From Segetibacter sp. (GTDB lineage Bacteria; Bacteroidota; Bacteroidia; Chitinophagales; Chitinophagaceae), in NCBI GenBank assembly GCA_031425015.1, contig JANPIM010000013.1:120939-184938 (forward strand): a stretch of DNA of 64,000 nucleotides, given 5' to 3'. Both the position numbers and the translations under genes were made by a program. Shown here one piece after another: positions 4,984-47,610 of the stretch. Below the pieces are notes generated by a model, which had not been told where the DNA came from, did no database searches, and was given only the letters and a program-made list of their open reading frames with translations. Numbering within the stretch: position 1 is the stretch's first letter; every line of letters begins with the position of its first letter.

Positions 4984-7900
4984 AATACCTGCGCATTTAC
5001 CATGTTCGATAAAGCCACTATCGAACGAATACCCACGGGCTCTAAGATCATCAACATGGGTATAGTACCTCAAACTATCGGTAATGCATTGAAACCTTAC
5101 GGACTGGTGTACCAACTTCTGGCTAACCAGATACCGGTGCGATGGGTATTCAATCAATCGAAACTGAAGGATGGAGTTGATCTCGTTCACAATGGAATTA
5201 CCTACCGGGGAAGTGCCTTTATTATTACTGCGCCTTTCTTAACACCTGCAATCAATTCGTTGATTTCAACATGGGAGGCAAAGGGGGTGGTAGTAAATAC
5301 CACCTTATTCGCCTTTGATGTGGAAGTAGCGAATACATTAAGGAGTAAACCTTTTTGGGTGATGGATGACCAAAATGGAAACATAGCAGTAGGATTTTTG
5401 CAAAATGCTGAAATACCATCAACAGCGTACATTTTTAAAAGTCCTGCCCAGCTAAATAATTGTGATGATATCTATGTAATGCCACATGCCGATCCAACAT
5501 GGGAAACTCATAAAAATTTATATTACTGGAACCTAAGTAATAAGGGCGGTATTTGGGCAGGTTGTCATGCAGTGAGTGTGTTGGAAAACGTATACGGACC
5601 AGATACTGCAAATGCCGCTGTTACACGCCGAATGAATTTTCTTATGAATGACGGTCCGGGCATAGGCAACTCAGCAGTATTATTTAATGACCATGCGAAT
5701 GCTTCACCACCTAATAACCAGCAATATCCCGGTACTCCCGTTATGCAGTTTATGGGCAAAACTGACCTTGCACATACTGGTGGATCTGAACAGGTTTTTA
5801 TGCCTAACAAGGCAGGAAGCTGGAGAAGTTCTACAATGATTGGGGTATTTGATCCATCGCAGGCTGATGTTCCTGCATTATCAAATGGTCCGGCAGCACA
5901 AATTGCTTTTGGACGTGCATTTGGCGATGATCAGCGGGGCTGGGTTCTATACGAAGGCGGACACAATATCAATGTAAGCAACCCTGATGGAATAGCAGCC
6001 ATGCGGACCTTCCTTAACTTTGGCTTCTTTAGTATCAGGGATAAACAACCTTCTGTGGTTGTAAGTGGAGCACCCAAAATTGCGTACAGCGGTCAATCGT
6101 ATGCGCTTAATGCAGTGGCTTCATCACAGATATCGACCTATGTTACGTTTAGCTACGAATGGACATCAAATTGCGGAGGTGTATTCTCTAATCCTTATGG
6201 GGCTTCTACAACATTTATTGCACCTACCGTTGCTTCTGCAACGCCTTGTGCAATTACTTGTAAAGTGACCGACAACTGTGGAAGACTAGTATTTGAAACG
6301 AAACCGTTGACTGTAACACCGGGTCCTAAAGCGCCATTGTGTGCCAGCGAAACGGTTATATACAATCCTTGTGATGGTAATTACATGACGGTGGATGTAC
6401 TCGCTAATGACTCAGATCCTGACGGTGGTGCATTATCGGTAACACTGCTTACTTCGGGTACCAATGGCACTTTCACGAATAATGGTAACGGTACGATCAC
6501 CTATACTCCGGGGTATGCATTTTCAGGGTCAGACAAAGTAGATTACTCCGTTTGTAATCCGAATGGAATGTGTTGCACTGCTACACTTACCGTAAATGTT
6601 GCGTTGATGGATGCCAACGGGTGTAGTCCTGATGAGTACTACACGATCGTTGGTAATATTACAGCATTGCGTGGCACTAGTGTAGGGGGAACTGCTATTA
6701 CTACCATTGGTGCTTCTACCAGTGACCCTGACGGAATAGTGGGCAACGCGGCCACGTATGCACTATTCTCTAACAAAAATCATATTGTCAATTACGCATT
6801 AAGTGCGCCTATACCAAAGGCAGATACTTTATACTTTTATGTTGATGGATCAGCAAATGCAGCGTATACGGTAAGTCAGAGTTCAGACAGTTTAAGCTGG
6901 ACTAACCCTATTCAATTTACATTAACGGGAACGGAAAACTTCCTGGCCTCAAGGGCAAACGCCTACCCGGTTTCCGCCGGAATAAGGTTTATTAAGGTTA
7001 CTATTCAAACAACTTCTGTGCAAATAGATGCCATGCAATACTTCGTTAGAAGTTGTGTAAGCGCAGCACCCGTTTCAACAAACGATGATGTGCAGACGCT
7101 GGAAGACATGCCAGTGATTATAGAGGTTGACGCAAATGATATTGACCCACGTGGTTTGCCGTTGAGGATTGCCCAGATCGTAGTAAAGCCAAAATATGGT
7201 GCGCTATCCATTAACTTGAATAATACAATTACCTACCTCAATTACAAAGACCAGGTGGGCAATGGCAGAGATACCTTTGTTTATCGTACGTGCAATACCG
7301 CAGAATTGTGTTCATTGGATACGGTCTACATCACAATCATAAAAGATAACTGCGCGCCAGGCAAGTACCGCCCGGGAACCTATAGTGTCTATTCATCTAC
7401 AATAAATCCTACAGCAGATAATTATTTGCGGTTGAATAATAACGGGACCAATTACGGTAACAATAACTCCATTGTTATCAAAGGAAAATCCAATGACTTT
7501 AAAAGAGGCATTTTACAGTTCAATACTTCCTTAATACCAAGTAATGCCATCATTGATGTGGCCACTTTGCGCCTCTACCAAACCAGTGGACCAACTGATG
7601 AAGCTTTAAAGATCCATCGTGTTACAACTCCATGGGCGGAAATGACCAGTACATGGGGCAGAAACAACGCAACAACCTTTTGGACAAACCCCGGTGGTGA
7701 CTTCAGTAATGTAATTGTTGCTGCAGGATTCTTAACTGGCCCGACCAATAGTTATAAGAGTTTCAACATAAGATCGGTTGTACAGGATTGGGTAAGCCAG
7801 ACCTATCCTAATTACGGAGTGGTGGCAACACGCTACCCGGAGAATGCAGGCACCAGCGACATTACCTTCAACTCTGTACAAAATGGATCGAACAGGCCAT

Positions 7901-10900
7901 TGTTATACATATCGTACCGGGTACCACTTGCATGTACCGATATACCGGCCTATGCGCCTTTGGCTATGCCAGATACCGCCACTACCAATTCAGTTCAGCC
8001 GGTAACGTTAACGGTAATGAGTAATGATTTTGATTACAACAATACCGGTTGTTCGATTGCTCTGTTAGGCACTACTACCGCCAAAGGTGGCACTGTAAGC
8101 CTAACTGCGGGCAATAAGATATTGTATACGCCACCTGCAACTCTACCTTCATTCAATGGTGTAGATACTTTTTCTTACCGTATGATAAACGGCACCTTCT
8201 CTGATACGGCTAACTGCTTTGTACTGGTGACCAATGCGCCGCCCAAAGCAAATCCCGACAGCTATATTTTGCAGTCAAATACGGCAACTACGCCCACTTC
8301 ACTTTCAAACGCCAACATCAGGGTAAACGACTCAGATCCAGAAGGTGCGGCGCTCTCCCTTCCAGTGGTCATAAAAGATCCGCGTAATGGCATAGCCACC
8401 ATTAATGGGTCTGGCTTGTTGTCTTATGTACCAAACCTAAACTTTCTTGGAAACGATACACTTGCCTACGAGATAACAGAGATGGCTGGTAACGGTTGTG
8501 TCCGGTTTAGAGATACCAGTACTATTGTGATCACGATTACCAATCGTCCGCCAATATCTGTTAATGACAACTTCACCTCCAATGCCTGTGAGGCAGTGAG
8601 AATTTCGGTGTTGAATAACGATATGGATCCTGAAGCGGGCAACATGACGGTACAGATCGTGACCCAGCCAAGTATTGGTTCCGTTGCTGTTATAAACAAT
8701 AACTCGGAAATTCTCTTTACACCACCAAGCGGCATTAGTAATATCACTACCAGCTTTACTTATAGAGCTTGTGATAATGCTACTCCTTCACTATGCGGCA
8801 ACACGGTTACAGTAAACGTAACCATCAGGCCGCTACCTGCTATAAACACTTCACCAGTAGCCGTTCGCGATACTTTTAGAGTGCCCTTGAACAGTGTGCT
8901 GTACGCAGACGTATTAACCAATGATTACGACCCGGATAAGAATGATTTCAGGTTGCCACTAACCATTGAAACCAATCCAAAAAATGGTTCTGTATTGCCT
9001 CTTCAAAATGGCCTTATCCAGTACATTCCAAATGCTTCTTACTTTGGCCGCGACTCATTCCAATACCGTGTGTATGATACCATCATGTCTATTGGTGGTT
9101 GTCCTGCAGCACCGGCACTTAGTTCTATAACATGGGTGTACATCCTGGTGCAGGATAAACCCATTGCTAATTGGGATTTGGCCGTGACGAGCAAAAACAT
9201 CCCTGTTACCATTAATGTTTTGAATAACGATTTATTTGGTGCATGGGGTCCGGCCAATGGAACAATATCAATCGTAACTGCACCAACAAGAGGTGCTGTA
9301 TCGGTGCTTTCAAACGGGTCGACGGTGCAGGCAAACAATACCCTCTCTTACACGCCAAATACCAATTATTTCGGTAGAGATTCACTGGTATACCGTATCT
9401 GCGATGCGTTTGGTAATTGCGATACGGCAATTGTGTACATCAGAATAGGGAATGATTCTGATGGCGATGGCGTAGCAGACGAGATCGACATTGATGACGA
9501 CAATGATGGTATAACAGACTATATAGAAGCCTGTGGTGCAGGTGCTACATCCTTCTCTTGTACTCCTGCCGGAAGTGACCCTTCAGGTGATGAGGACAAT
9601 GATGGTATTTTAAATTTTAGAGATAGTAAATGGGCACCACTGAATAGCAATGGGTGCTCCATATTCCTGGACACTGATGGAGATGGAGTGCCAGATTACC
9701 TGGATTTAGACAGCGATAACGATGGTATTGCCGATGTGGTGGAAGCACTCGGTGTAGATGCAAATGGTGACGGTATAATTGATAACTACTGCGACACCGA
9801 TGCTGATGGACTATCGCAAAACGTGGATGCAAATAATACAGGAGCAATGGGTAGCGGTTTTGGTTTAGGTGCTCCTGATTTTGATAATGATGGTTTACCG
9901 AACGCAGACGATGTGGATAGCGACAACGACGGCATACCGGACATTGTTGAATCTTATGGACAAGACTTAAACAACGATGGCAGGATAGAAGTGTTCACCG
10001 ATACAGATAACGATGGATGGGCAAATCAATTTGACGGCGACGCAGATGGAAATGGCATCGTAGAGAACGTAGCAAATGTGCTCATTGTTACCGGAAACGA
10101 CCCTGCCTACATTAATTGTGCGAGTCCCGGAACTGGAAGACCAGGTTGCTATCCTTTAAATGGTAATGCAGACAATGTTGGATTTCCAAACTTTATTGAC
10201 CTGGACAGTGATGGCGATGGAGTTACCGATGCAACAGAAAGTGGTTTAGCCATAAGTTATAGCAGGGGAATGGTGTCGGGATGTTCTTTGGTCAATGGAT
10301 GGTGTTCTACCATTCGTTCATTGCCGGCCCTGAACTTACGCAATACAGATGGCCATGGTCGTCCTGATGTCTACGATATTGATAGCGACAACGATGGAAT
10401 TACAGATAATATTGAAGCACAACCAACCCACAGTTATATAATTCCTATTGATCTGGATGGAGATGGTGACGGGTTAATTAATGTGTACGACTTTTTTGGT
10501 GGCGTTGGAGGTAATGGATTAACCCCGTATGATCATGATGCGGACGGAGTGCCAGATTACCGGGATACCGATACCGATAATGATGGAGCGCCCGATAGAA
10601 ATGAAGGTGATTACAGGAACAAAACAATGACCCAGGCTTTGATCAATGGAGACCTTGATAGTGATGGTGATGGCCTGATGGATTGTTTTGACATCAATGA
10701 TATTCGTTCCGAACTGTGCGGTGTTGGTTTCACCAATGTGAGCATGAGCAACATGGGTACCAATGGAAACTTCAACGGCCCTGCTCCAGGCGGATCATCC
10801 GTTCAATTGGTTCGTTCTTCTCCAACAGCTCCGGACCGTGATTGGAGAAACACTACCACGCTTCCCATCAATATTATCAGCTTTACAGGCTCGCTAAATA

Positions 10901-28582: not shown

Positions 28583-29066
28583 CTGCAGTTGATGACGCTA
28601 TAGAAAACATGTGCTGATGCCGAAGTTGGCGTCCGCGCCAACTGCTATAGTTAACGACGGTAAATAAGTCAACATCACTCTTAGATCAAGAAGCAAAACT
28701 TAATAGAAGTTGAATAGTAGTGTTCGGTAAAAGTGAGTGACACAACGATGCTGAGGCCGCAGTTGGCGTCCGCGCCAACTGCTAGGCAAAGGTTATTAGG
28801 TGTAAAAGAAATTGCTTTCAAAGAAGCAAAATTTGGTAAAAAATGAAAAGTGAATTGCGGTACAAGTGAGTGACACAACGATGCCGCCATGAAAAGCAAA
28901 TGCTGATGGGCTGCAGTTGGCGTCCGCGCCAACTGCTATAGACAAAGGTTATTAGGTAAAAAGGGAATCGATTTCTAAGTAGCAAAAATTGGCAAAAGAT
29001 GAACTGTGGGTTGCTGTACAAGTGAGTGACACAACGATGCAGCCATGAAAAGCAAATGCCAGCTAC
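28583..29066 (+). repeat. BIME-like tandem triplication (~135-155-nt units): perfect hairpin + diverged linker + REP-like core
   Basis: Hairpin (GC)AGTTGGCG-TCCG-CGCCAACT(GC) at 28624, 28759, 28913; core AAGTGAGTGACACAACGATGC at 28731, 28864, 29020; linkers of units 2 and 3 are visibly homologous. Confidence 0.9.
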
Positions 29067-31016: not shown

Positions 31017-31064
31017 GGATAATCTCTATTCAACTTTTTCTATGCTTTGTTTTTGGTAAGAATT

Positions 31065-31290
31065 AACGCAAAGGCGCAAAGGAATTCCACCCAAAGGAGC
31101 AGAGGAAAGCCTCTTTATATTGTTCTTTGCGTCTTTGCTCCTTTTGATTTCTTTGCGTGAAATTGTACCTGTCGCAATGGGGCGAAAATGATTTCACGCA
31201 AAGGCGCAAAGTGAAGCACGCAAAGGCGCAAAGAAAAACCTCTAGATATGGTTCTTTGCATCTTTGCTCCTTTGCGTCTTTGCGTGAAAT
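31065..31290. repeat. Two tandem ~100-nt inverted-repeat (hairpin) elements built from CGCAAAGG/CTTTGCGT octamers
   Basis: Element 2: ATTTCACGCAAAGGCGCAAAG (31191) ... CTTTGCGTCTTTGCGTGAAAT (31290), 20/21 complementary. Element 1 (31065-31163) is a diverged duplicate. Confidence 0.85.
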
Positions 31291-31349
31291 TTTAATGAAC
31301 CTAGAGCAAATTGTTTCGTACGTCACCTTTGGGAATTATTCTTCGCAAC

Positions 31350-31390
31350 TAAACTTCAAACCCTAAACCCTAAACCCCAACCCCAAACTC
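31350..31390 (-). repeat. Degenerate heptamer array after the ALDH stop
   Basis: aaactt caaaccc taaaccc taaaccc caacccc aaactc. Confidence 0.7.
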
Positions 31391-32849
31391 ACAACTCCAC
31401 ACACACATTCTTTGCTTCCGTAAAAAACCGCAGCGCTTCCCAACCGCCTTCACGGCCAACGCCGCTGTTTTTTGTGCCGCCAAAAGGTGTACGCAAATCC
31501 CGAACAAGCCAACAGTTCACCCAGATGATTCCTGCTTCCACTTTCGCTGCTACACGGTTGGCCCTGCCAATGTCTTGCGACCAAATCGTAGCCGCTAATC
31601 CGTAATGGCAGGCATTGGCTAATTGCAATGCTTCCGCTTCAGTTGTAAATGATTGTAGCGTAACAACCGGTCCAAATATTTCATCCATGTTGGTGCTGCA
31701 GTCAGGCCCCAATCCTTCTATAATCGTTGGCTTAATAAACAATCCGTTAGCACAACGACCTTCTAATTTTACTGCTTTTCCACCAGTCAATATTGTTCCG
31801 CCTTCCTGCTTTGCCACTTCTATGCAGTTTATTACTTTATCGAAATGCAGCTTACTCACAACTGCTCCTTGTTTTGAAGTTTCATCCATTGGATCACCGA
31901 CCGTAAGCTCCCTTGTTCGTGCTACAAACTCAGCTTTAAATTTTTCGTAAATACTTTCTTCCACCAGTATTCTACTACCGCATAAACAGATTTGTCCCTG
32001 GTTGCTAAAAGATGATCGCAAGGTTGCTTCCATCATTTTGTTCCAATCGCAATCAGCAAAAATGATGTTGGGATTTTTTCCACCCAACTCCAATGATAAC
32101 TTCTTAAACTTTGGTGCAGCAATGGACGCAATGCGCTCACCTGCACGTGTACTTCCCGTAAAAGAAATGGCTTTTATTGCCGGATGCGAAACAATTACTT
32201 CGCCCACGCCTGGCCCGGTTCCATGAACGATGTTCAATACGCCATCCGGCAAGCCTGCTTCTTTGCAAATCTTTGCGAGTAGATAAGCCGTGACCGGCGT
32301 TACTTCCGAAGGTTTTGCAACCACGCAATTACCGGCTGCCAAAGCCGGCGCTATCTTCCATGTAAAAAGGTATAAGGGTAAATTCCACGGCGAGATACAT
32401 CCAACAATACCAATCGGCTGGCGTAACGTATAGTTGATCGCCTTGTCTTCCATGTGGTGACTCTCTGTACTAAAGTGCATAATACCCGTTGCAAAAAACC
32501 GGAAGTTGGCAGATGCTCTTGGTATGTCAACACGTTTACTCAGCCATAGTGGTTTGCCATTGTCAGTTGTTTCGGCTATCGCTAACGCATCTAAGTTTTC
32601 ATCGATCAGTTCTGCAATCTTATTCAAAATCTTAAACCGCTCTTCAGCCGCCATCACTGACCAAACAGGGAAAGCTTGCTTAGCTGCGTTCACGGCCAGC
32701 TCTACATCTTTCTCATTGCTGTCAGGTGTATTAGAAAAAACTTCACCCGTCGCTGGATTAATGTTCTCCAAATACTTTCCACTCAGCGGCCCAATTAAAT
32801 TGCCACCTATGTAGTTCTCGAGGTAGAATGGAATAGAGAGGGATGGCAT
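31389..32849 (-). CDS. Aldehyde dehydrogenase, likely 2-aminomuconate-6-semialdehyde dehydrogenase (NbaE/AmnC/ALDH8A1-like)
   Basis: SPWNLPLYLFTWKIAPALAAGN, FTGST..G, LELGGKNP, FSNQGQICLCGSRI, DEIFGPV; adjacent to nbaC/nbaD. Confidence 0.88.
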   Translation of the reverse strand: MPSLSIPFYLENYIGGNLIGPLSGKYLENINPATGEVFSNTPDSNEKDVELAVNAAKQAFPVWSVMAAEERFKILNKIAELIDENLDALAIAETTDNGKPLWLSKRVDIPRASANFRFFATGIMHFSTESHHMEDKAINYTLRQPIGIVGCISPWNLPLYLFTWKIAPALAAGNCVVAKPSEVTPVTAYLLAKICKEAGLPDGVLNIVHGTGPGVGEVIVSHPAIKAISFTGSTRAGERIASIAAPKFKKLSLELGGKNPNIIFADCDWNKMMEATLRSSFSNQGQICLCGSRILVEESIYEKFKAEFVARTRELTVGDPMDETSKQGAVVSKLHFDKVINCIEVAKQEGGTILTGGKAVKLEGRCANGLFIKPTIIEGLGPDCSTNMDEIFGPVVTLQSFTTEAEALQLANACHYGLAATIWSQDIGRANRVAAKVEAGIIWVNCWLVRDLRTPFGGTKNSGVGREGGWEALRFFTEAKNVCVEL

Positions 32850-33000
32850 GTTTGAAGTTTGAAGTTTGAGGTTTGAAGAAAGATGTTTCTAGTATCTAGT
32901 TTAAGGTTCGAGGTTATTTCTGTAGAAAGCGACAGCAGGTAAATATTTAAATCAATGTTTGTGCTTGTCAACTTCAAACTTTAAACATCAAACTTCAAAC
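32850..33000. repeat. Inverted heptamer arrays (GTTTGAA vs TTCAAAC) bracketing about 90 nt between SDR and ALDH
   Basis: tttgaagtttgaagtttgaggtttgaag (32851-32878) ... cttcaaactttaaacatcaaacttcaaac (32972-33000). Confidence 0.8.
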
Positions 33001-33805: not shown

Positions 33806-33869
33806 GTCAGATTTGCTGTAATTTGGCCAGGTTTCCATGTCATAACATCTTCACCTAAAACATTTGCAC

Positions 33870-34403
33870 ATGCCAGTAGCTTCCCCATTTAACCTAAAGG
33901 GTTGGATAAATGAACATCGTAATCTTTTAAAACCACCGGTTGGTAATCAATGCGTTTATAAGGATGCAGAAAATTTTATAGTGATGGTTGTGGGCGGCCC
34001 GAATGCACGCAAAGATTATCACTACAATGAAAGTGAAGAATTGTACTACCAGGTAGAGGGAAATATTGTGTTGAAGATTATTGATGAGGGTACGCCACGT
34101 GATATTCCCATCAACGAAGGCGACATGTTTTTACTTCCGCCACAAACGCCACACTCACCCCAGCGCCCAGCAAATACCGTTGGCTTAGTCATAGAAAAAA
34201 AACGTGAAGACGAGGAAAATGAGAAAGATGCATTCATGTGGTTCTGCGAAAATTGCGGCAATAAGTTGTACGAAGAATTTGCTTTCGTCAGCGATATTGT
34301 ACAACAGCTTCCGCCTATAATGGAGAAGTTTTATTCGAATGAATCATTGCGGACTTGTGATAAGTGCGGGGTGGTGATGGAGCCTCCAATTAAAAAAGAT
34401 TAG
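33870..34403 (+). CDS. nbaC: 3-hydroxyanthranilate 3,4-dioxygenase
   Basis: LLKPPVGN, VVGGPNARKDYH.NE.EE, PHSPQR, WFCENC...CDKCG (rubredoxin-like site). Confidence 0.96.
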   Translation: MPVASPFNLKGWINEHRNLLKPPVGNQCVYKDAENFIVMVVGGPNARKDYHYNESEELYYQVEGNIVLKIIDEGTPRDIPINEGDMFLLPPQTPHSPQRPANTVGLVIEKKREDEENEKDAFMWFCENCGNKLYEEFAFVSDIVQQLPPIMEKFYSNESLRTCDKCGVVMEPPIKKD

Positions 34404-34862
34404 AACGCAGATTTTTATGATTGTGATGATTAAAATGATTTTATGGACACTTATTTACACTCTGATATCACATCGTTAATAATAAAAGGGTTCTATACAG
34501 TTTATAATAGACTTGGTTATGGTTTTCTTGAAAAGGTTTATGAAAATGCGCTGCTATTTGAACTTAGAAAACAGGGATTAGTTTGTCAACCACAGCTGCA
34601 GGTCAAAGTTTTTTATGATGAGGTTCAAGTTGGTTATTACGTAGCTGATATGATAGTTAATGACAAAGTTATTGTAGAAATTAAAGCCGCTGAAGCTTTA
34701 TGTGAAGAACATGAAGCACAGCTTGTGAATTATTTGAGAGCAACAAATATAGACGTAGGAATACTTTTGAATTTCGGTAAGAAAGCAGAGCTGAAAAGAA
34801 AGGTGTTCTCATCTTAATTCAAAAATCATAACGCATCATCAGAATCATAAAAATCTGCGTTC
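34403..34862. mobile_element. Putative inverted-repeat-bounded GxxExxY cassette inserted between nbaC and nbaD
   Basis: GAACGCAGATTTTTATGATTGTGATGAT (34403-34430) vs ATCATCAGAATCATAAAAATCTGCGTTC (34835-34862), 27/28 complementary. Mobility is inferred, not shown. Confidence 0.55.
34443..34817 (+). CDS. GxxExxY protein (PD-(D/E)XK-like)
   Basis: LGYGFLEKVYENAL (GxxExxY), ADMIVNDKVIVEIKA, QLVNYL, GILLNFG. Confidence 0.92.
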   Translation: MDTYLHSDITSLIIKGFYTVYNRLGYGFLEKVYENALLFELRKQGLVCQPQLQVKVFYDEVQVGYYVADMIVNDKVIVEIKAAEALCEEHEAQLVNYLRATNIDVGILLNFGKKAELKRKVFSS

Positions 34863-34872
34863 CAATACAATA

Positions 34873-35859
34873 ATGAAAATCGACATCCACACCCACATCA
34901 TGCCGGAGCATATGCCTAACTGGACAAGAAAGTTTGGCTACGGCGAGTTTATTCATTTGGAGCATCGCAACTGCGAGGCTTGCATGATGAAAGGTGATAA
35001 GCTATTTCGGGTAGTGGAACCGAATTGTTTTAAAGCTGAGGTGCGGATAAAAGACATGGACGAAACAGAGGTATCCATGCAGGTGCTTTCAACTATCCCG
35101 GTGCTTTTTAATTATTGGGCGAATGCAAATGATGGACATGAAACGGCGCGTTTTTTAAATGATCACCTTGCTGAAGAAGTTTATAAGGCACCCGATCGCT
35201 TCATAGGTATTGGCACAGTTCCGTTACAGGATATTGATTTGTCGATAAAAGAAATGGAGCGGTGTATGCACGAATTGAAAATGCCTGGTCTGGAAATTGG
35301 CTCCAACATCAACGGCAAAAATCTAAGCGATCCATCTTTCTTTCCTTTTTATGAAGCTGCAGAAAAAATGGGATGCGCCTTATTTGTTCATCCGTGGGAA
35401 ATGATGGGAGAGGACCAGATGCAAAAATACTGGCTGCCCTGGTTGGTAGGAATGCCTGCTGAAACTACACGTGCCATCTGCTCAATGATTTTTGGTGGCG
35501 TGTTTGAAAAGTTTTCAAAGTTGCGCGTAGCCTTTGCACACGGTGGCGGATCATTTCCGTATACCCTGGGCCGAATAGAACATGGCTTTGATGTTCGACC
35601 TGATTTGGTAGCCGTTGATAATTCAAACTCGCCGCGCAGTTATCTTGGCAAGTTTTGGGTGGATAGCCTTGTTCACGACCCTAAAACTCTTCATTATTTA
35701 TTGGATGTAATGGGTGATGATAAAGTTTGTCTCGGTAGCGATTACCCTTTTCCTCTGGGGGAGCACCGTCCCGGCAAATTGATCCAGGAAATGAACATCG
35801 GGCAACAGGTGAAAGAAAAATTATGGTATCAAAATGCGAAGAATTGGCTGGGCTTATAA
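34873..35859 (+). CDS. nbaD: 2-amino-3-carboxymuconate-6-semialdehyde decarboxylase (ACMSD, amidohydrolase 2 family)
   Basis: IDIHTH, FVHPW.MMG, WLPWLVGMPAET, AHGGGSFP..LGR..HG, LGSDYPFPLGE. Confidence 0.93.
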   Translation: MKIDIHTHIMPEHMPNWTRKFGYGEFIHLEHRNCEACMMKGDKLFRVVEPNCFKAEVRIKDMDETEVSMQVLSTIPVLFNYWANANDGHETARFLNDHLAEEVYKAPDRFIGIGTVPLQDIDLSIKEMERCMHELKMPGLEIGSNINGKNLSDPSFFPFYEAAEKMGCALFVHPWEMMGEDQMQKYWLPWLVGMPAETTRAICSMIFGGVFEKFSKLRVAFAHGGGSFPYTLGRIEHGFDVRPDLVAVDNSNSPRSYLGKFWVDSLVHDPKTLHYLLDVMGDDKVCLGSDYPFPLGEHRPGKLIQEMNIGQQVKEKLWYQNAKNWLGL

Positions 35860-39540: not shown

Positions 39541-39812
39541 AAGTCAAAAGTCAAAAAGCAAAAAGCAAAAAGCAAAAATAAAATCAGAATAGAGAAAGTA
39601 ATGTTGCTTTTTCGCTTTGAAAGAAGCTACATAGTAGCACAACTGCTGAACGGAATGCGACGCAAGGATGCTTAACCTGGGCACTAAAGTTTGTACCAAA
39701 ATTTTAGCATAGATCAGGATAATAAAAAAAGTCAAAAGTCAAATTAGAGGCTGACCTCTTTTTTGACTTTTGACTTTTGACTTTTGATTTTTGCTTTTTG
39801 CTTTTTTACTTG
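39541..39812. repeat. Heptamer arrays (AAGTCAA/AAGCAAA and complements) plus one REP-like copy between convergent genes
   Basis: aagtcaaaagtcaaaaagcaaaaagcaaaa (39541-); aaagtcaaaagtcaaa-ttagaggctgacctc-ttttttgacttttgacttttgac (39725-39782); REP core GAATGCGACGCAAGGATGC at 39653-39671. Confidence 0.8.
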
Positions 39813-47483: not shown

Positions 47484-47501
47484 AACGGAACGTAAAATGG
47501 T

Positions 47502-47597
47502 ACGCAAATTTTTATGGTTGTTATGATTTGTTATGGATTATGTGGAATTCGTAAAAAAGATCAGTATTCATCCTTTCAGTCATAAAAATCTGCGTTC
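47502..47597. repeat. Gene-less copy of the GxxExxY inverted-repeat bracket between kynU and kmo
   Basis: Left ACGCAAATTTTTATGGTT (47502-47519) pairs with right AGTCATAAAAATCTGCGT (47578-47595). TCATAAAAATCTGCGTTC (47580-47597) is identical to 34845-34862. Confidence 0.8.
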
Positions 47598-47610
47598 AAA
47601 AATTTAGAAC

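Follow-up and report, generated by a model that had tools for sequence, protein, structure and literature searches.

A 464-bp segment of the Segetibacter sp. genome (Bacteroidota; Chitinophagaceae), lodged between two genes of a kynurenine operon, belongs to a recurrent family of palindrome-bounded cassettes of about 0.46-0.63 kb in Bacteroidota. The segment lies in a 64,000-nucleotide stretch of contig JANPIM010000013.1 (assembly GCA_031425015.1), referred to here as the window, and consists of a small gene of the GxxExxY family enclosed by two complementary arms. An original prediction, made from the letters of the window, had described it as an inverted-repeat-bounded intervening cassette, looped out of the messenger RNA (mRNA) in the manner of a ribosomal RNA (rRNA) intervening sequence (IVS). 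The explanation favored here, held with moderate confidence, is that of a selfish, operon-riding palindromic cassette whose arms would pair in the mRNA.

Cassette anatomy

The cassette extends from the T of its left terminal box to the A of its right terminal box (34401-34864, + strand), both boxes having been located by pattern. Upstream lies nbaC (33864-34403, +), which encodes 3-hydroxyanthranilate 3,4-dioxygenase and scored above the cut-offs of two equivalog models, NF009763 and TIGR03037. The left terminal box, TAGAACGCAGAT (34401-34412, +), overlaps the end of this gene, with its TAG at 34401-34403 forming the nbaC stop codon. Three tandem 9-nt units read from the sequence, TTTTATGAT, TGTGATGAT, and TAAAATGAT (34413-34439, +), follow, each ending in GAT, and the ATG of the GxxExxY/PDDEXK_3 gene (34443-34817, +; 124 amino acids), identified by hidden Markov model matches, stands 3 nt past the last of them. 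On the right side, units ATCATAACGC, ATCATCAGA, and ATCATAAAA (34825-34852, +), each starting with ATC, lead into the right terminal box, ATCTGCGTTCCA (34853-34864, +), which repeats the left box in inverted form apart from an A.C mismatch at the R of the consensus. This box ends 8 nt before the ATG of the downstream operon gene (34873-35859, +), an Amidohydro_2 gene of the ACMSD type (PF04909, E = 6.8e-44) that is also found next to nbaC in about 60 relatives. The kynurenine-operon setting claimed in the original prediction thus stands for nbaC by its equivalog models; for the downstream gene nbaD is a likely name, short of proof, as no equivalog model matched it in the family-model scan.

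The geometry of the arms was recomputed and proved exact. The segments 34403-34430 (GAACGCAGATTTTTATGATTGTGATGAT) and 34835-34862 (ATCATCAGAATCATAAAAATCTGCGTTC) are complementary at 27/28 positions, with the outer 20 bp perfect; the left arm starts at the last base of the nbaC stop (34403, the G of TAG), and the right arm ends 10 nt short of the nbaD ATG (34862 versus 34873). A repeat finder lengthened the arms to 34399-34430 and 34835-34866, or 32 nt with 30/32 (94%) complementary, so that the first two left-side units fall within the paired left arm. The GC counts per 60 nt given for the cassette (18 at 34501) and its surroundings (30 at 34141 and 31 at 35401) were likewise exact, and the contrast extends to whole genes, with 33.3% GC in the cassette open reading frame (ORF) versus 42-46% in its neighbors and 25.6% versus 39-46% GC at third codon positions. 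The 124-amino-acid PDDEXK_3 protein is the only ORF in the window cassette, which holds no DDE or other cognate transposase, and a Pfam scan of four window neighbors and of the genes beside cassettes in four fetched loci returned metabolic domains only and no known transposase. Target-site duplications were equally missing, as had been claimed: boundary direct repeats of 42 elements occurred at chance level at every offset and length tried.

A recurrent family of bracketed genes

Three sets of loci were fetched (numbered L-), comprising 80 loci around nbaC from genomes, 80 around GxxExxY homologs from metagenomes, and several contigs carrying the closest proteins; the sampling is partly biased toward relatives of the window protein. 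Flavisolibacter ginsengisoli DSM 18119, Terrimonas ferruginea DSM 30193, and Pseudoflavitalea sp. G-6-1-2 are named isolates represented in these loci. Logan contigs with the window sequence derive from SRR20217183, and a relative is present in SRR20217217. The best nbaC identities in species representatives were 88-89%, the source organism being a member of the Chitinophagaceae. About 90 homologous genes were sampled, 80 of which had enough flanking sequence to be tested for complementary brackets. Brackets were judged by an ungapped score and its controls, RNAduplex on 200-nt flanks being too permissive to be informative. Scores of at least 14 were obtained for 45/80 GxxExxY genes versus 0/183 displaced controls, which were same-sized segments moved by 1.3 or 2.2 kb within the same loci and reached a maximum of 13; shuffled right flanks gave scores of 9-14. 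Flanks of other GxxExxY copies therefore carry the same kind of bracket as the window copy, which bears out the discrete, inverted-repeat-bounded character attributed to it.

The brackets share more than complementarity. The terminal-box pattern T-R-G-N-A-C-R-C-N-G-A(T) occurs 240 times in 939 kb of loci versus 26 times in shuffles, and it was found on both sides of 41/86 cassettes and on at least one side of 69/86. The conserved arm end has the consensus A-T-R-G-A-A-C-R-C-N-G-A-T, and an anchored alignment of 36 elements shows no variation at seven positions of the box in each arm. Inward of the box stand two to five 9-nt units in tandem, each with GAT at its end; examples are GACGCGGAT, GACACAGAT, and, as in the window, TTTTATGAT. 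Elements around homologs measure 455-714 bp, mostly less than 630 bp, and the commonest architecture is box, gene, and inverted box (35 loci), with variants that carry extra arms. Two distant paralogs (37-39% identity) use other unit families, namely CTTCGTGC in L005 and CAGGATT in L148. No description of such brackets was found in the literature on GxxExxY, PDDEXK_3, TIGR04256, and TIGR02436, although curated family descriptions may mention them.

These counts also dispose of the simplest alternative, that a chance inverted repeat surrounds an ordinary resident gene. AT-rich sequence does yield short repeats, and nothing further speaks for this idea, which is refuted by the displaced controls, by conservation of the box across metagenomes, and by the 19-nt arm core, which has five matches (with three mismatches or fewer) in the window versus 0.03 expected; its probability is practically negligible.

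Constraint on the arms

The arms of a single element match each other beyond what their shared consensus provides, because both pairing and covariation exceed those of partner shuffles. Pairing extends to 86.3% of cells in the alignment of 36 elements versus 71.4% when partners are shuffled among elements, and 19/26 pairs change on both sides. The covariation score of 0.407 compares with 0.148 for shuffles, 0/500 of which reached it, and with 0.08-0.13 for slid registers; related rows can surpass shuffles without a selected structure. In the window cassette, RNA folding predicts the outer stem whether the structure is chosen by minimum free energy or as the centroid, with a folding energy of -123.6 kcal/mol versus -95.5 +/- 5.2 for shuffles (z = -5.4). 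Three positions frequently lack a partner, namely R in TRG and N in each CNGAT (columns 3, 10, and 19). The N positions of the CNGAT units, 9 nt apart at columns 10/49 and 19/40 of alignment A2, are unpaired in 36-44% of elements, and the adjoining pairs are 95-100% paired, which gives the stem a periodic weak point.

The box is invariant as sequence, which a plain stem would not need, and gene-less derivatives of the cassette keep the same ends; for these two reasons we infer that a sequence-specific reader recognizes the terminal box.

Close relatives permit a direct measure of constraint. The window, L166 (nbaC 95.7% identical in amino acids), and L169 (89.8%) share an orthologous cassette at this junction, and nbaC ends at the box TAG in all three. 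Arm identity between these orthologs is 22-27/30, whereas 4-fold degenerate sites of nbaC and nbaD are 33-40% identical, that is, saturated (Fisher p = 9e-12 for arms versus 4-fold sites, window versus L169). Parallel changes in the two arms separate the window from L169 at two unit positions, and one G.G mismatch has been kept in both. The protein tells the same story, with a nonsynonymous divergence (dN) of 0.088 and a synonymous divergence (dS) of 1.07 between the window and L166 (dN/dS about 0.08). Because arm identity exceeds that of saturated 4-fold sites, dN/dS is low, and residues E30, D69, E79, and K81 are invariant, sequence comparison shows the arms and the protein to be under purifying selection, as functional parts and not decaying relics. 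Decay does occur elsewhere in the family: internal stop codons interrupt 7 of about 93 sampled ORFs (L097, L099, L121, L144, L146, L151, and L064), and the arms of these decaying copies are often still recognizable.

The GxxExxY protein

The PD-(D/E)XK-like character assigned to the protein at the outset is well founded. ORF 34443-34817 matches TIGR04256 (GxxExxY) with 131.6 bits (cut-off 35) over residues 9-120 and PF13366 (PDDEXK_3) with 139.2 bits (cut-off 22). An alignment of 41 sequences shows no variation in the motif G27-F-L-E30-K-V-Y33 or in the catalytic-type residues D69 and E79-I-K81. The AlphaFold2 model (pLDDT 90.9) shows the expected restriction-endonuclease-like alpha/beta fold, with secondary-structure elements in the order H-H-E-E-E-H-E-E. 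Best Foldseek matches were the Cas4 protein SSO0001, lambda-type exonucleases, and Hjc, with probabilities of 0.99-1.0 and TM-scores of 0.45-0.6; tRNA-splicing endonucleases ranked lower, and overall the matches identify general PD-(D/E)XK relatives only. Neither a sequence search of the PDB (at E <= 1) nor a search of PHROGs with the cassette protein returned a match. The family is large, with 14,563 cluster representatives at 50% identity, and its function was listed as 'Unknown' in a 2012 survey of the PD-(D/E)XK superfamily (PMC3424549). The existence of fused two-domain tandem GxxExxY proteins of 250-270 amino acids (P0121-P0125, P0130, P0138, and others) suggests that the single-domain protein may work as a dimer.

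Two other assignments were considered and rejected. Membership in a defense system found too little support in PADLOC, which gave weak matches only, to the Cas4 nuclease core (E about 1e-3), and a phage gene family was set aside with a single relative among viral contigs.

Operon context

Cassettes are packed tightly into operons and follow their direction. Of the loci in which both neighbors could be called, 52 have the cassette gene running in the direction of both and 3 have it opposed to both (binomial p = 1.5e-12); 10 further loci have neighbors that are not co-directional. The left box mostly begins 0-17 nt past the upstream stop, with the box TAG itself serving as the stop in seven cases, and the downstream ATG mostly lies 0-27 nt past the right box. 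Host operons include the kynurenine pathway (window and L169) and, for close homologs, an arginine decarboxylase/agmatinase operon (L164) and pyrimidine-degradation operons, one of which (L162) holds one cassette and another (L167) two in successive gaps, at 6137-6695 and 7575-8110, with proteins that are 84% identical in amino acids. Since there is no room for a transcription unit of its own and neither a promoter nor a terminator was seen, the cassette is probably transcribed as part of its host operon. An Rfam search of 30.5-48.5 kb at a permissive threshold gave sub-threshold chance matches only, none of them on the element, and hence no ribozyme, intron, or other known RNA motif. No rRNA motifs were found in the sampled loci, which is a weak test.

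Gene-less hairpins

The family also includes elements that have no gene. In the window, a hairpin of 103 nt (47498-47600, +) lies between the stop of a kynureninase gene (47483; identified by TIGR01814) and the ATG of an FAD monooxygenase gene (47611). It contains arm core matches at 47501-47519 (+) and 47578-47596 (-), aligns with the cassette ends at 26/31 and 31/41 positions and with the start-codon region TTATGGA at 8/9, and is predicted to fold as a hairpin (z = -2.7). Its alignment score to the cassette is 80.8 versus 34.2 +/- 5.4 in shuffles, and it looks like an internally deleted cassette, apparently related to its parent as a MITE (miniature inverted-repeat transposable element) is to a full element. 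Across the sampled loci, 33 gene-less hairpins of 49-238 nt with cassette-type ends were counted versus 37 gene-bearing elements, and 21/22 of those checked were intergenic.

Near parity of gene-less and gene-bearing forms, together with hairpins in tandem arrays (L140, L120, and L138), invites comparison with REPINs and RAYTs (PMC3116915, PMC3337134). On that model the hairpins would be the replicating units, GxxExxY would be a mostly vertically inherited nuclease acting in trans and bordered by its cognate repeats in the way that REP sequences border RAYT genes, and operon position and RNA stem would be side effects. Several genes that stand between two complete hairpins, the private unit families of the distant paralogs, the purifying selection on arms and protein, and the orthology of the cassette at one junction in the window, L166, and L169 all fit it. 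Set against these are the PD-(D/E)XK fold, in place of an HUH/Y1 transposase of the IS200/IS605 type; the strong co-orientation with neighbors, which the model does not predict; and copy number. RAYTs are typically single-copy (PMC5581495), whereas GxxExxY is multi-copy, as in the two cassettes of the L167 operon and the 99% identical tandem pair of L104, and is scattered on the host tree. On balance, this model appears unlikely.

Turnover at the nbaC-nbaD junction

Comparison of the junction among relatives had been proposed as a check on the cassette, and it reveals unstable occupancy. The gap between nbaC and nbaD ranges from 3 to 757 nt across about 66 relatives, short gaps of 3-55 nt being the commonest state (about 25/66 measured junctions). 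Other junctions hold hairpins only, of the CNGAT type in L025, L009, and L023, of the ACGCAAAG type in L007, L057, L060, and L080, and elsewhere of the GTCGGAT/GTCTGAT, GTTTAGG, GTTTCTCGTT, and TCAAAAT types; in L069 a GxxExxY cassette sits in the opposite orientation. Junctions occupied by GxxExxY fall in at least seven separate places on a neighbor-joining tree of nbaC and nbaD, beside unoccupied sisters. The copies at the junction are not most closely related to one another: for the window protein, the best such copy elsewhere in the genome loci ranks 93rd. Copies within single contigs can be 84% (L167), 90% (L117), or 99% (L104, tandem) identical. Taken together, these comparisons indicate repeated gain, loss, and replacement of cassettes at the junction, so far as the sequences of relatives can tell. 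The cassette is patchy among relatives and sits in the operon without separating the flanking genes. At two further junctions the gap contains an ORF of 160-164 amino acids with a signal-peptide-like N-terminus (L046, 4520-5063; L074, 4531-5062); it matches no NCBIfam model and lacks a convincing inverted repeat.

Patchiness of this kind would also be expected of a free-standing homing endonuclease gene that cuts cassette-free junctions and is copied in by repair, in the manner of intergenic homing genes of phages, with the inverted repeat incidental or a relic of the landing site. A small, AT-rich nuclease gene wedged between conserved genes without target-site duplication resembles such a gene, and so does the lower synonymous divergence of the cassette compared with its flanking gene: between the window and L166, 4-fold sites are identical at 25/38 positions in the cassette versus 16/48 in nbaC (p = 0.004). 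This difference is a hint that the shared ancestor of the two cassettes is younger than that of their flanks, although composition or constraint could also explain it. A site-specific homing enzyme would have no need of the conserved box and arms that recur at many unrelated sites, would not account for selection on the arms, and would not leave gene-less derivatives that spread or persist. Homing of this type is accordingly judged very improbable.

The variety of hairpins at one junction raises a different alternative, in which the element serves the host as an intercistronic RNA device for processing, stability, or coupling, and the genes in its loop are passengers with unrelated roles, for instance in defense or repair. 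At least six unrelated hairpin unit families occupy the nbaC-nbaD gap, and several other gaps in the window are similarly filled; the arms are conserved far above neutral expectation; tight packing against stop and start codons and the bias in co-orientation fit; and the sole PADLOC matches of the cassette protein, weak as they are, point to a nuclease core. The operon does not need the element, as the junctions with 3-55-nt gaps demonstrate, the box is more invariant in sequence than a mere stem requires, and AT-richness, pseudogenized copies, and patchiness are marks of selfish elements. A host-serving role as the primary explanation is therefore regarded as decidedly unlikely, and the selfish cassette remains the preferred one.

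Cassettes with four-helix-bundle genes

At the nbaC-nbaD junction of other Chitinophagaceae (L028, L045, L077, and L079), genes of the four-helix-bundle family TIGR02436 occur within other brackets. Among the fetched loci, 7/12 TIGR02436 genes with enough flank have bracket scores of at least 14, and their arms consist of tandem units such as GTTTGAGG, GTTGGAGG, or ATTAGCGA that abut the ORF. TIGR02436/PF05635 is the family encoded in 23S rRNA IVSs and is related to Avd (PMC4990558, PMC10053308). Its presence in analogous brackets at the same junction makes the comparison with IVSs more than a likeness of shape and strengthens the analogy drawn in the original prediction.

Additional hairpins in the window belong to unit families of the type seen around TIGR02436 genes. 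At 31057-31294, two adjoining gene-less hairpins have arms of tandem ACGCAAAGGCGCAAAG-type units, which produce the spurious ORFs 31063-31326 (-) and 31157-31366 (+); the same unit family is found in the nbaC-nbaD gap of L007, L057, L060, and L080. The gap between the start of an aldehyde dehydrogenase gene (32849, -) and the stop of a short-chain dehydrogenase/reductase gene (33005) is nearly filled by GTTTGAAG units arranged as an inverted repeat (32848-33000; 29 nt, 90%, 93-nt spacer), and this unit type also brackets a TIGR02436 gene in L045. Between two convergent genes, AAGTCAAAAG / AAAAAGC units form a further inverted repeat (39541-39811; 43 nt, 81%, 185-nt spacer) that encloses no credible ORF. 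A CCCTAAA-like heptamer run at 31345-31390 (aaaccctaaaccctaaaccccaaccccaaa) abuts the aldehyde dehydrogenase stop and may be half of another unit-type hairpin. A different, GC-rich family is represented at 28624-28936 by three copies of a 22-24-nt palindrome, GCAGTTGGCGTCCGCGCCAACTGC, spaced 135-154 nt apart.

Proposed mechanism

According to the preferred explanation, the cassette would be transcribed within its host operon, and its arms would pair in the transcript as a stem of about 28-32 bp that loops out the gene of roughly 400 nt, so that the upstream stop and the downstream start come to lie a few nucleotides from the base of the stem. With about 30 bp, such a stem is expected to be an RNase III substrate. 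The cassette stem may thus be bound or cut as a generic substrate of this enzyme, as are rRNA IVSs, with their complementary borders (PMC4990558), and Correia elements within mRNAs (PMC2649163). Pairing could then either free the cassette as an RNA with paired ends, a configuration that stabilizes RNAs in E. coli (PMC1635301), or maintain translational coupling, and in both cases the insertion would be tolerable. More speculatively, a ribosome at the nbaC stop, which lies within the first base pairs of the stem, might open the outer stem, free the stretch just ahead of the nbaD start, and in this way restore coupled translation over 470 nt.

In the DNA, the repeats and the invariant box would most likely be recognition sites of the encoded nuclease, probably acting as a dimer, which may promote copying or replacement of elements, for example by break-induced recombination between them. 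Internal deletion of a cassette would give rise to MITE-like hairpins. Break-induced copying would account for the absence of target-site duplications, for cassette replacement, and for internal deletions.

Several observations weigh against this explanation and temper the confidence placed in it. In about 8-10 loci the gene stands between two complete hairpins rather than inside one, and intact genes with degenerate or missing arms (L030, L069, and L056) imply that the bracket is not indispensable. No pair of empty and filled sites at near-identical sequence was found in the sampled loci, and no mobility event was caught there. Arm mismatches in gene-bearing elements comprise 40 G.U, 29 A.C, and 69 others, with no sense-strand excess of G.U; lacking this asymmetry, sequence does not distinguish pairing in RNA from pairing in DNA or from arm-to-arm copying. 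The scan for sigma-70 promoters and intrinsic terminators came out at or below shuffle level, and Bacteroidota promoters fall outside its model. Co-transcription, looping, and cleavage are all steps that we infer. A PD-(D/E)XK protein of 124 amino acids is not among the known transposases, and the four-helix-bundle cassettes, which share the same lifestyle without a nuclease, weaken the idea that the cargo moves the element. Of the overall interpretation in the original prediction, the bounded intervening cassette and the IVS analogy hold; looping out of the mRNA is only consistent with the data, namely a predicted stem and 52:3 co-orientation.

A broader version of the selfish-cassette explanation would unite the GxxExxY and TIGR02436 cassettes as an unrecognized mobile class of mRNA intervening sequences, in which a minimal dimeric nuclease reads the tandem 9-nt boxes of the arms and moves or replaces the element with no target-site duplication, for instance through cuts in hairpin or cruciform forms that set off recombinational copying; the arm stem would loop out or excise the cassette and so leave the host operon functional, and the rRNA IVS would be the special case of an insertion into rRNA genes. 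This extension is tentative and, taken as a whole, doubtful.

Comparison with known systems

The cassette family shares traits with rRNA IVSs, REPIN/RAYT systems, and MITEs and is a member of none, as each fails in at least one defining feature. The IVSs of bacterial 23S/16S rRNA genes, for example in Coxiella, Leptospira, and Salmonella (PMC4990558), are likewise inserts of about 0.1-0.45 kb with complementary borders and a long stem, are transcribed within the host transcript (as the cassette probably is), occur sporadically among relatives, and may carry a small ORF, whose S23p/TIGR02436 family is the one also found at the nbaC-nbaD junction in other Chitinophagaceae. They differ in that the host of the cassette is a protein-coding operon instead of an rRNA helix, its ORF encodes a PD-(D/E)XK nuclease, and its arms bear 9-nt tandem units behind a terminal box of invariant sequence; excision by RNase III would apply to it by analogy only.

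REP/REPIN-RAYT systems resemble the cassettes in combining intergenic palindromes with a small nuclease-type gene flanked by inverted repeats, in dispersed copies without target-site duplication, and in having a repeat family that goes with a protein clade. They part from the cassettes in the nuclease, PD-(D/E)XK here and not HUH/Y1, and in the multi-copy, operon-co-oriented state and 9-nt tandem-unit arms of the cassettes. Correia elements (CREE), ERIC, and other MITEs (PMC2649163, PMC3184786, PMC2229807) have terminal inverted repeats, intergenic locations, and common gene-less copies. They are also co-transcribed with their neighbors, and their RNA hairpins serve as substrates of RNase III, which has been demonstrated for Correia elements; for the cassette both traits are presumed. 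These elements usually have a target-site duplication and an insertion sequence transposase, whereas the cassette lacks the duplication and has a minimal nuclease as its only gene.

Integron cassettes are similar in their promoter-less, small, co-oriented, and packed ORFs and in imperfect palindromes with AAC ... GTT ends. They differ in that the elements described here have no integrase and form no arrays, and that the palindrome halves bracket the ORF and do not lie 3' of it. An integron cassette was rejected as an identification, given ends (ATRGAAC / GTTCYAT) that do not fit attC (RYYYAAC / GTTRRRY), single cassettes in operons, and metabolic neighbors in four fetched loci; a group I or II intron or IStron was also rejected, with no ribozyme and no splice-type boundaries. 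Free-standing homing genes of phages (T4-type seg/mob) are site-specific and are not known to have flanking inverted repeats or gene-less derivatives. The resemblance to them is that of a small, patchy, compositionally distinct nuclease gene between conserved genes, and the cassette is set apart by its inverted repeats, its gene-less derivatives, and its many sites.

Significance

Both the GxxExxY and the four-helix-bundle families inhabit palindrome-bounded cassettes of one kind, found at the same operon junctions. No function has been assigned since the 1990s to the 'S23p' four-helix-bundle proteins of rRNA IVSs (PMC4990558), and for both protein families their own arms, as DNA or RNA, provide a concrete and testable substrate. 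For annotation, the family accounts for many odd 'hypothetical ORFs' and simple-repeat hairpins in intergenic regions of Bacteroidota. The cassettes further point to a way in which a selfish insert may settle between translationally linked genes without breaking the operon.

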